Assembly (NCBI RefSeq): GCF_021028975.2
Contig: NC_059437.1
Coordinates: forward strand, 33,852,001 to 33,916,000
Reading direction: 5' to 3'
DNA length: 64,000 nucleotides
Origin: Sphaerodactylus townsendi
Lineage: Eukaryota
The position numbers and the translations under genes were made by a program. The notes under the pieces are model-generated. The model made no database searches. It worked only from the letters and a program-made list of their open reading frames with translations, and was not told where the DNA came from. Shown in pieces: positions 20,601 through 22,437 of this stretch (positions are counted from its first letter, which is position 1; each line of letters begins with the position of its first letter).

Positions 20601-22437
20601 TTGGGGTTGTAGCATCGTTTTAGCAACCTCTCTCTGCCCTGTGAATTCCCCACTGTGAAGACAGAAAATCTGGGTAGGTTGTATTTTGATGTCACCATCC
20701 AAACTGACTTCCTCAATTAGTATAATTTACACATCTTGAATCTGATGAAGGCTACAACTTACAAAATGTGGTGACTGGGTAGAAATATTTCAGTAATTAT
20801 GTTGGTATATGGTTGAAGACTTTCACAGCTGGAATCACTAGTGTTGTGGGTTTTCTGGGTTGTATGGCCGTGTTCCAGTAGTATTTTCTCCTGATGCCAG
20901 CCACAGATGCATGTGAAACTTTAGGAGAAAATACTACTGCAACTAACCAACCCTGGCCATTCCCAATTATTTGACATTATTATGGTATTATAAAAAGACA
21001 AGGGACTATGGTTAATACCTGTTTTCCCTGGCAGGTTTCCTTGAGCAGGGCTTACTCGTCAGAAACTCCAAGAAGCTGGGCGATAAGTATGTTGCCACCT
21101 TACAATTCAAGCTTGATATTCTCTCTGTTTTACCCACTGATTTTGCATACATTGCCACGGGCTTAAACCGGCCTGAGGTCCGGTTCAATCGGCTGCTACG
21201 CTTCTCTCGCATGTTTGAGTTCTTCGATCGAACTGAGACGAGGACCAGCTACCCAAACATCTTTAGGATCTGCAACCTAGTGTTGTACATCTTGGTCATC
21301 ATCCACTGGAATGCCTGCATTTATTATGCCATTTCCAAGTCCATTGGCTTTGGAGTGGACACCTGGGTTTATCCAAATATATCCGATCCAGAGTACGGCT
21401 ATCTGACAAGGGAGTATATCTATTGTCTCTATTGGTCTACCCTGACCTTGACAACCATTGGAGAGACCCCTCCCCCTGTGCGGGATGAAGAGTTTCTCTT
21501 TGTCATCTTTGACTTCCTGATTGGTGTCCTCATCTTTGCTACTATTGTGGGAAATGTGGGCTCCATGATCTCCAACATGAATGCCACCAGAGCCGAGTTC
21601 CAGGCCAAGATCGATGCTGTGAAGCACTACATGCAATTCTGCAAAGTGAGCAAGGACATGGAGGCCAAGGTCATCCGGTGGTTTGACTATCTCTGGATCA
21701 GTAAGAAAACTGTTGATGAATGGGAAGTACTCAAGAATCTCCCTGACAAGTTGCGAGCAGAGATAGCTATCAACATCCACCTTGAGACCCTGAAGAAAGT
21801 GAGGATATTCCAGGACTGTGAGGCTGGCCTCTTGGTAGAACTCGTGCTGAAGCTCCGCCCTCAGGTTTTCAGACCTGGCGATTATATTTGTCGAAAAGGG
21901 GACATAGGAAAGGAGATGTATATCATTAAAGAAGGGAAGCTGGCTGTGGTGGCTGATGACGGCGTGACTCAGTATGCTTTGCTAACTGCAGGGTGCTGCT
22001 TTGGCGAGATCAGCATCCTCAACATCAAAGGAAGCAAAATGGGGAACAGGCGGACAGCGAATATACGCAGCCTTGGCTACTCTGACCTCTTCTGCCTGTC
22101 AAAGGATGACCTCATGGAAGCAGTGATGGAGTACCCTGATGCCAAGAAAGTTCTGGAGGAACGTGGCCGAGAGATTCTGGTCAAAGAAGGGCTGTTGGAT
22201 GAAACAGAAGCTTCTGAAAGCATGGAAGGGAACATGGGACAGAAACTGGACCGGCTGGAGAGCAGCCTGGAGATGCTGCAAACCCGCTTCTCCCGGCTCT
22301 TGGCTGACTATGACGCTGCTCAGATGAAGCTCAAGCAGCGCATAACCTTCTTGGAGAACAAACTGAAGCAATCCAACCAGAGTGACTTTTTCTCTGATGC
22401 CTCTGACAACCTACTGGAGGATGAAGGGCAACCATGA
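14637..22437 (+). CDS. CNGA2: Cyclic nucleotide-gated olfactory channel alpha subunit (CNGA2 or CNGA2-like), 6 coding exons, 662 aa
   Basis: Exons: 14637-14728 ([13 protein letters not shown]..), 16276-16380 ([12 protein letters not shown]..), 17255-17428 ([27 protein letters not shown]), 19007-19114 ([24 protein letters not shown]), 20182-20288 (ACFNELQ..IRLRTG), 21035-22437 (FLEQGLL..S4 EVRFNRLLR, pore [30 protein letters not shown]). Total 1989 nt, open frame, GT-AG introns with compatible phases. [16 protein letters not shown] and C-helix Glu ([10 protein letters not shown]) are CNGA2-type. Confidence 0.92.
15319..15632 (+). mobile_element. tRNA-derived CORE-type squamate SINE (Squam3-like) with (CTT)n tail
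   Basis: tRNA-like head, CORE-like GCTGGGTGTCCTTGGG..CTCAGCCCCACC, CTTCT tail. Near-identical copies at 32245-32537 and 36737-37045. The first 17 bp are tandemly duplicated. Confidence 0.8.
20811..20940. mobile_element. Penelope-like element terminal fragments in inverted arrangement
   Basis: Shares TGTATGGCCGTGTT and GATGCCAGCCACAGATGCA with the 60.8-kb copy; 17-bp perfect inverted repeat CAGTAGTATTTTCTCCT / AGGAGAAAATACTACTG. Confidence 0.7.

Follow-up and report, generated by a model that had tools for sequence, protein, structure and literature searches.

The window is the whole stretch of 64,000 nucleotides that was analysed. It contains a CNGA2 gene, here called copy A, with six coding exons on the forward strand (14637-22437). 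All 662 codons are open, the introns are GT-AG, and frame and splice sites are intact across 1,989 bases. The spliced product of 662 residues is identical to database protein P0122, whose source label is Sphaerodactylus townsendi. Its top structure match was human CNGA2 (chain 9upf_A, E 2e-262). Among the CNG alpha subunits copy A is closest to CNGA2, and in the tree it is nested within gecko CNGA2. The features of the window are given below, where B and C are two further CNGA2-derived copies in the same assembly.

8042..29430, + strand: duplicated block of about 21 kb with copy A (blastn, collinear pieces, 82-98% identity)
14637..14728, + strand: coding exon 1, with the ATG
16276..16380, + strand: coding exon 2; E42K and Q44H are unique to copy A
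17255..17428, + strand: coding exon 3, N-terminal region; 18/174 bases differ from B
19007..19114, + strand: coding exon 4; 0/108 differences to B
20182..20288, + strand: coding exon 5
21035..22437, + strand: coding exon 6, with S3-S6, pore, C-linker, CNBD, leucine zipper and stop
21457..21483, + strand: pore motif, intact in A; assembled B has a net 4-base loss here
21640..21642, + strand: R398C (TGC), equal to human CNGA2 R399 and CNGA3 R427; A only; CpG transition
21697..21702, + strand: T417I and N418S (ATC-AGT); T417I in A, B and C, N418S in A only
21721..21723, + strand: W425 (TGG), a squamate-wide residue and no lesion
21775..21777, + strand: V443I; A only within the genome, also in contigs of runs X3, X5 and X8
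21871..21873, + strand: S475R (AGA); A only within the genome, also in contigs of runs X5 and X8
22126..22128, + strand: T560M (ATG), common to A and B

The initial annotation had listed five altered motifs in the C-linker and CNBD and had read them as one cluster of radical substitutions. All five have the bases and residues claimed, within the single open frame 21016-22437. Its manual alignment of the YMQFCKV position with human CNGA3 R427 was also correct when we aligned copy A with the 694-residue chain 8etp_A, in which FRKV ends at 429. Copy A retains the TIGETPPP filter, the GEISILN...RRTAN binding cassette and the C-terminal leucine zipper, and sequence alignment bore out the earlier statement that frame, pore and nucleotide-binding motifs are intact. 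No sign of a pseudogene (stop, frameshift or splice loss) was found in the 662-codon frame or in any intron.

Three CNGA2-derived loci within 165 kb

As a genome search showed, a stretch of about 165 kb holds three loci derived from CNGA2. The two extra ones lie 140-160 kb upstream of copy A on the opposite strand. Copy B is a full gene at C13 33,711,999-33,720,382, about 150 kb from copy A, and the block around it (G000:C13:33704487-33732415) matches window 8042-29430 in inverted orientation. All that is left of copy C (G000:C13:33727072-33728107) is a fragment of the last exon, 1 kb long and broken by stops and indels.

Copy B has GABA-A receptor domains on one side, at 33.63 Mb, and a Gla domain on the other, at 33.755 Mb, these neighbours being named by Pfam domain only. 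The human order is GABRE-CNGA2-PRRG3, and B and its neighbours are oriented likewise. Copy A lies outside the GABA-A receptor/PRRG3 interval, beyond the Gla-domain gene, and is inverted. Because B sits at the ancestral place, B is the parent and A the relocated, inverted daughter. At each highly conserved site that differs between A and B, B has the ancestral residue.

Contigs of four sequencing runs (X3, X4, X5 and X8, of 21 listed) were compared with window 21620-22140. X3 comes from the organism of the assembly but from a different sample, X5 and X8 are two other organisms, and X4 reaches the 3' part only. X3 gave an exact A-type contig over 21671-21813 together with B-type and C-type contigs. 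As all three types occur in this second sample, the duplication is real, with no collapse, and a haplotype artefact was rejected. Copy C ends at the same point in the X3 and X4 contigs, so its truncation is older than their split.

As assembled, copy B has a net loss of 4 bases in the pore motif (G000:C13:33712950-33712970) and stops after 355 residues, which leaves A as the only open frame. Both database proteins for the species, P0121 and P0122, derive from copy A only. If the break were genuine, B would be dead in this animal or species, relocation would have come about by loss of the parent, and A would be the sole working CNGA2 with a change like R427C. We consider this improbable. At low gap costs, 19 bases of the lesion hold 4 deletions, 1 insertion and 1 substitution, the deletions being very small and placed in short runs. 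In the 3' flank of B, seven unpolarised patches of 50-160 bases have short deletions adding up to 60, along with 6 insertions and 12 substitutions; the sum covers these patches alone, as whole-region gap totals include alignments to C. One patch of 50 bases has 10 deletions and is free of substitutions, and its surroundings have 2-7 substitutions per 300 bases. Short deletion-only errors amid near-identical sequence are typical of uncorrected long-read patches. No decay was seen in copy B outside the pore lesion, and P0121 and P0122 match the same assembly, so they are not independent evidence. Since the lesion resembles the deletion-only flank patches, B is probably intact, and on this indirect evidence its frameshift is probably an assembly error. 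The frameshift probably hides a conserved CNGA2 from annotation. The CNGA2 protein annotated for the species, P0122, belongs to the divergent daughter, and the likely working gene is concealed by a probable error of assembly.

Two C-rich low-complexity tracts of about 5 kb, at L019:4800-9950 and G000:C13:33767900-33773100, are possibly assembly filler. Tandem repeats of about 300-500 bases lie upstream of CNGA2 in both copies (window 10481-13249 for A). They carry motifs resembling olfactory O/E sites; these occur in the repeats of both A and B and decide nothing between the copies.

In the literature searched (titles and abstract starts, most subscription papers being outside it) we found no report of a reptile or gecko CNGA2 duplication, and CNG was not mentioned in PMC12549870. 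The duplication in this gecko is apparently unreported.

Residues specific to copy A

The motifs stood as described, and the single cluster did not. The residue read as R>W (W425, in DEWEV) is present in 15/15 squamate orthologues and in 0/7 non-squamates of the same alignment, and was therefore rejected as a lesion; it is the only one of the listed changes that squamates share broadly, an outcome which the initial annotation had named as counting against its reading. In a larger set it occurs in 31/156 other CNGA2-like proteins, two birds among them. T417I and T560M are among 13 residues common to A and B against six agreeing geckos. The set specific to copy A is R398C, N418S, V443I and S475R; V443I was absent from the earlier list of changes.

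These four sites are highly conserved. In other proteins, site 398 is R in 151, H in 4, C in 1 and Q in 1 of 157; sites 418 and 443 are N and V, respectively, in 156/156; and site 475 is S in 156 and T in 1 of 157. Among distant CNG channels (80 of 150 representatives), positions 417, 425 and 560 vary freely, and 398 (R in 68/77) and 475 (S in 73/80) are conserved. At the 398 site, five CNGA2 proteins of birds (P0067, P0040, P0102, P0111 and P0119) have Cys or His, Cys in the kagu and His in the four others; one further protein has Gln.

We counted rare residues over residues 376-580, at columns at least 90% conserved. Copy A has 6 and copy B 2; the six other geckos have 0-2, the median is 1, and at least 6 are found in 5/156 proteins. 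By this count the excess of rare C-linker and CNBD residues in copy A is real but modest. No rare residue specific to copy A was found in S1-S6.

The proposal that R>C, R>W and T>M each arose by one CpG transition holds for R>C, as copy B reads CGC there. T>M and R>W are compatible with it and may have arisen in this way. The same R398 CpG was also hit in the dead copy C, as R>H.

Contigs from further samples supported the bases of T>I, N>S, V>I, S>R and T>M. The R>C site lies outside their coverage in all four runs, and the R398C base is known from this assembly only. T417I and N418S are in exact A-type contigs of both X3 and X8, and none of the four runs lists an alternative letter at T560M. 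At 475 the X3 contigs have only the B-type letter, which cannot show absence of the other. The X5 contigs carry V443I and S475R, and the sole path shown from 21706 to 21959 is A-type; contigs drop variants, so this path is no proof that B-type letters are lacking. X8 carries T417I, N418S, V443I and S475R alongside B-type pieces. N418S, V443I and S475R are thus kept in other organisms, a persistence that would not be needed if the copy were simply drifting into decay.

One A-type contig of X8 (depth 8.9) is joined to foreign DNA immediately upstream of codon 417. This suggests that the X8 organism has at least one interrupted copy, of A type, and hints that copies have arisen and died within the clade. 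The CNGA2-like contigs of X8 meet foreign DNA at three places, corresponding to window 21696, 22012 and 22087, and two of the X8 loose ends gave no match when compared with the window.

Rates of change and the state of copy A

At conserved sites that differ between A and B, A has 7 rare residues and B has 0 (p=0.016). With five of the six gecko outgroups, A has 15-16 derived changes and B has 2-3 (p 0.001-0.008). With Paroedura as outgroup the counts are 12 and 5, which is not significant (p 0.14), and neither are the counts for residues 125-662 alone (A 7, B 1-2, p 0.07-0.18). The protein branch lengths are 0.037 for A and 0.0079 for B, a rate of protein change in A some four to five times that in B.

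The pairwise dN/dS between A and B is 0.24 overall, 0.074 for residues 125-600 and 0.066 for the C-linker and CNBD. It is 0.72 for residues 1-124, which is not distinguishable from 1 (p=0.50). A value near 1 across the gene was not seen, the N-terminus alone being high. Exon 3, the region of the calmodulin site, has replacements between A and B that include R69Q, E84K, E87P, F96I and D100E. About 6 core changes fell on the A side, and about 29 are expected from the non-coding rate. Over 909 bases polarised by C, silent and replacement changes are 10 and 4 in A, 6 and 0 in B, and 13 and 13 in C; S475R fell in a gap of copy C and is outside this count. Copy A is faster than B, yet its core is far from neutral.

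The initial annotation had offered relaxed selection on a redundant copy as one reading. The redundancy is there, as a full second copy has the ancestral residues and A has most of the derived changes; the relaxation is only partial. In our preferred reading, to which we give a probability of roughly 60%, A is an inverted daughter under loosened, not absent, purifying selection, and the parent B probably supplies the normal olfactory subunit.

Copy A might instead be functionless already, its frame still open through recent loss or through repair by conversion, with R398C perhaps a private or late allele. The N-terminal dN/dS of 0.72, the independent mutation of the same CpG in dead copy C and the seemingly interrupted A-type copy of X8 are consistent with this. 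However, the core dN/dS of 0.07 departs strongly from neutrality (p about 5e-12), frame and splice sites are intact over 1,989 bases, and the ratio of 10 silent to 4 replacement changes on the A branch differs from the 13 to 13 of C. We regard a functionless A as quite improbable.

The differences between A and B are uneven along the gene. They number 15/321 in 21600-21920 and 8/517 beyond it, 18/174 in exon 3 and none of 108 bases in exon 4, which is likely a gene-conversion tract. Non-coding divergence is overdispersed (variance/mean 6.7 over 86 windows), and 7 of the 86 non-coding windows of equal size are as divergent as exon 3. We infer that patchy gene conversion between A and B lies behind this pattern. 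Conversion from B could also depress dN and dS of A jointly and so imitate constraint. Synonymous differences bunch in the same C-linker stretch as the replacements; since the bunching includes silent changes, it is weak evidence for adaptation.

These data also bear on whether A is a retained second subunit, retuned in C-linker coupling and N-terminal regulation and kept apart from B by selection against conversion. A clade of dwarf geckos would then have a second olfactory CNG alpha subunit, whose C-linker and CNBD changes and rebuilt N-terminus retune cAMP gating. The frame is intact, the C-linker and CNBD have six rare residues where S1-S6 have no rare residue specific to A, and exon 3 and the C-linker stand out as most divergent beside near-identical tracts. 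N418S, V443I and S475R recur in A-type contigs of the other organisms X5 and X8, with the A-type-only path in X5. On the other hand, dN/dS exceeds 1 in no region of the A-B comparison (pairwise counts; short protein fragments of congeners were sought, and none was close). Non-coding windows equal the divergence of exon 3, contigs lose variants, and the A-type copy in X8 is apparently interrupted. We therefore think a retuned A doubtful. If it were true across the clade, a site of human channelopathy would occur there in a naturally tolerated form, and A and B would make a ready pair with only four C-linker and CNBD residues between them.

The best reading is that copy A is a partly relaxed duplicate, and neither a retuned sole channel nor a sign of smell loss. 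Most of the observation is accounted for by one residue found throughout squamates, two residues of the lineage and four changes in a daughter copy under partly relaxed selection, and what looked like a cluster of disease-like changes becomes an ordinary outcome of gene duplication. In the general model, a daughter duplicate that has moved and its parent evolve at unequal rates, and gene conversion acts on them in patches. Our case resembles it in the slow parent B in its ancestral place, the fast inverted daughter A and the overdispersed divergence. It differs in that the gene concerned, CNGA2, mostly occurs as a single copy among the records retrieved for reptiles, birds and mammals.

The R427 site and the olfactory pathway

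Compared with vertebrate CNGA2, copy A has the same six coding exons, pore, CNBD and leucine zipper, all intact. In contrast, the gecko has two full copies and a fragment, and copy A is set apart by R398C, N418S, V443I and S475R and by a fast N-terminus. R398C is in the identical alignment column as human CNGA3 R427C and CNGA1 R420Q. The effects described for those two come from channels other than CNGA2, and five bird CNGA2 proteins have Cys or His at this site.

Going by the title of a 2008 report by Koeppen, human CNGA3 R427C reportedly impairs surface expression rather than retuning gating. In the parts available of three papers (PMC8766373, PMC9953513 and PMC3474720), R427C is named only in the reference lists. 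A model sets CNGA3 R427 against E453 of the adjacent subunit (PMC4256070). CNGA1 R420Q, equal to CNGA3 R427Q, markedly reduced the response in a CNGA3 surrogate assay and occurs at a frequency of up to 0.8% with two homozygotes (PMC13214374). PMC12549891 gives the native olfactory channel as 2 CNGA2 : 1 CNGA4 : 1 CNGB1b and describes CNGA2's own N-terminal calmodulin site as dispensable in that channel, which fits the fast N-terminus of copy A.

We propose the following course. CNGA2 was duplicated within a block of about 21 kb, the daughter A being relocated and inverted and the parent B staying in place. Patchy gene conversion may then have left the differences bunched in exon 3 and the C-linker. 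B would supply the normal subunit, its pore break being an assembly error, and A, if expressed, would co-assemble with B, CNGA4 and CNGB1b in the 2:1:1 channel. By analogy with CNGA3 R427, R398C may remove the modelled charge contact between subunits, weaken a contact of the C-linker, and lower surface delivery or response; B would buffer this cost. Provided that A is expressed, the two copies would offer a clean natural test of four C-linker and CNBD residues, one of them at the CNGA3 R427 site.

Other CNG genes of the assembly were also searched. Only one photoreceptor-type CNG alpha gene was found, a CNGA3-like one at G000:C4:95670497-95671825. CNGA1 was not found in the assembly, consistent with the loss of rod genes in geckos.

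The genome search did not find CNGA4 in the assembly. Two neighbours of CNGA4 appear to be missing as well, since the search gave no more than three cavin loci and three FHIP loci. Loose ends of X3, X4 and X5 contigs at window 22069-22112 belong to another CNG alpha gene that is absent from the assembly. Their letters read like CNGA4, a tentative name, as the motif had no match among the proteins compared. Because the neighbours are missing too and CNGA4-like contigs exist, an assembly gap is likelier and loss of CNGA4 was rejected; the gene is probably missing from the assembly, not from the animal.

Loss of smell was likewise rejected. Among the best 138 of 606 olfactory receptor candidates, a choice biased to intact genes, 137 of the 138 scored matches have no stop, and OMP is intact in the assembly.
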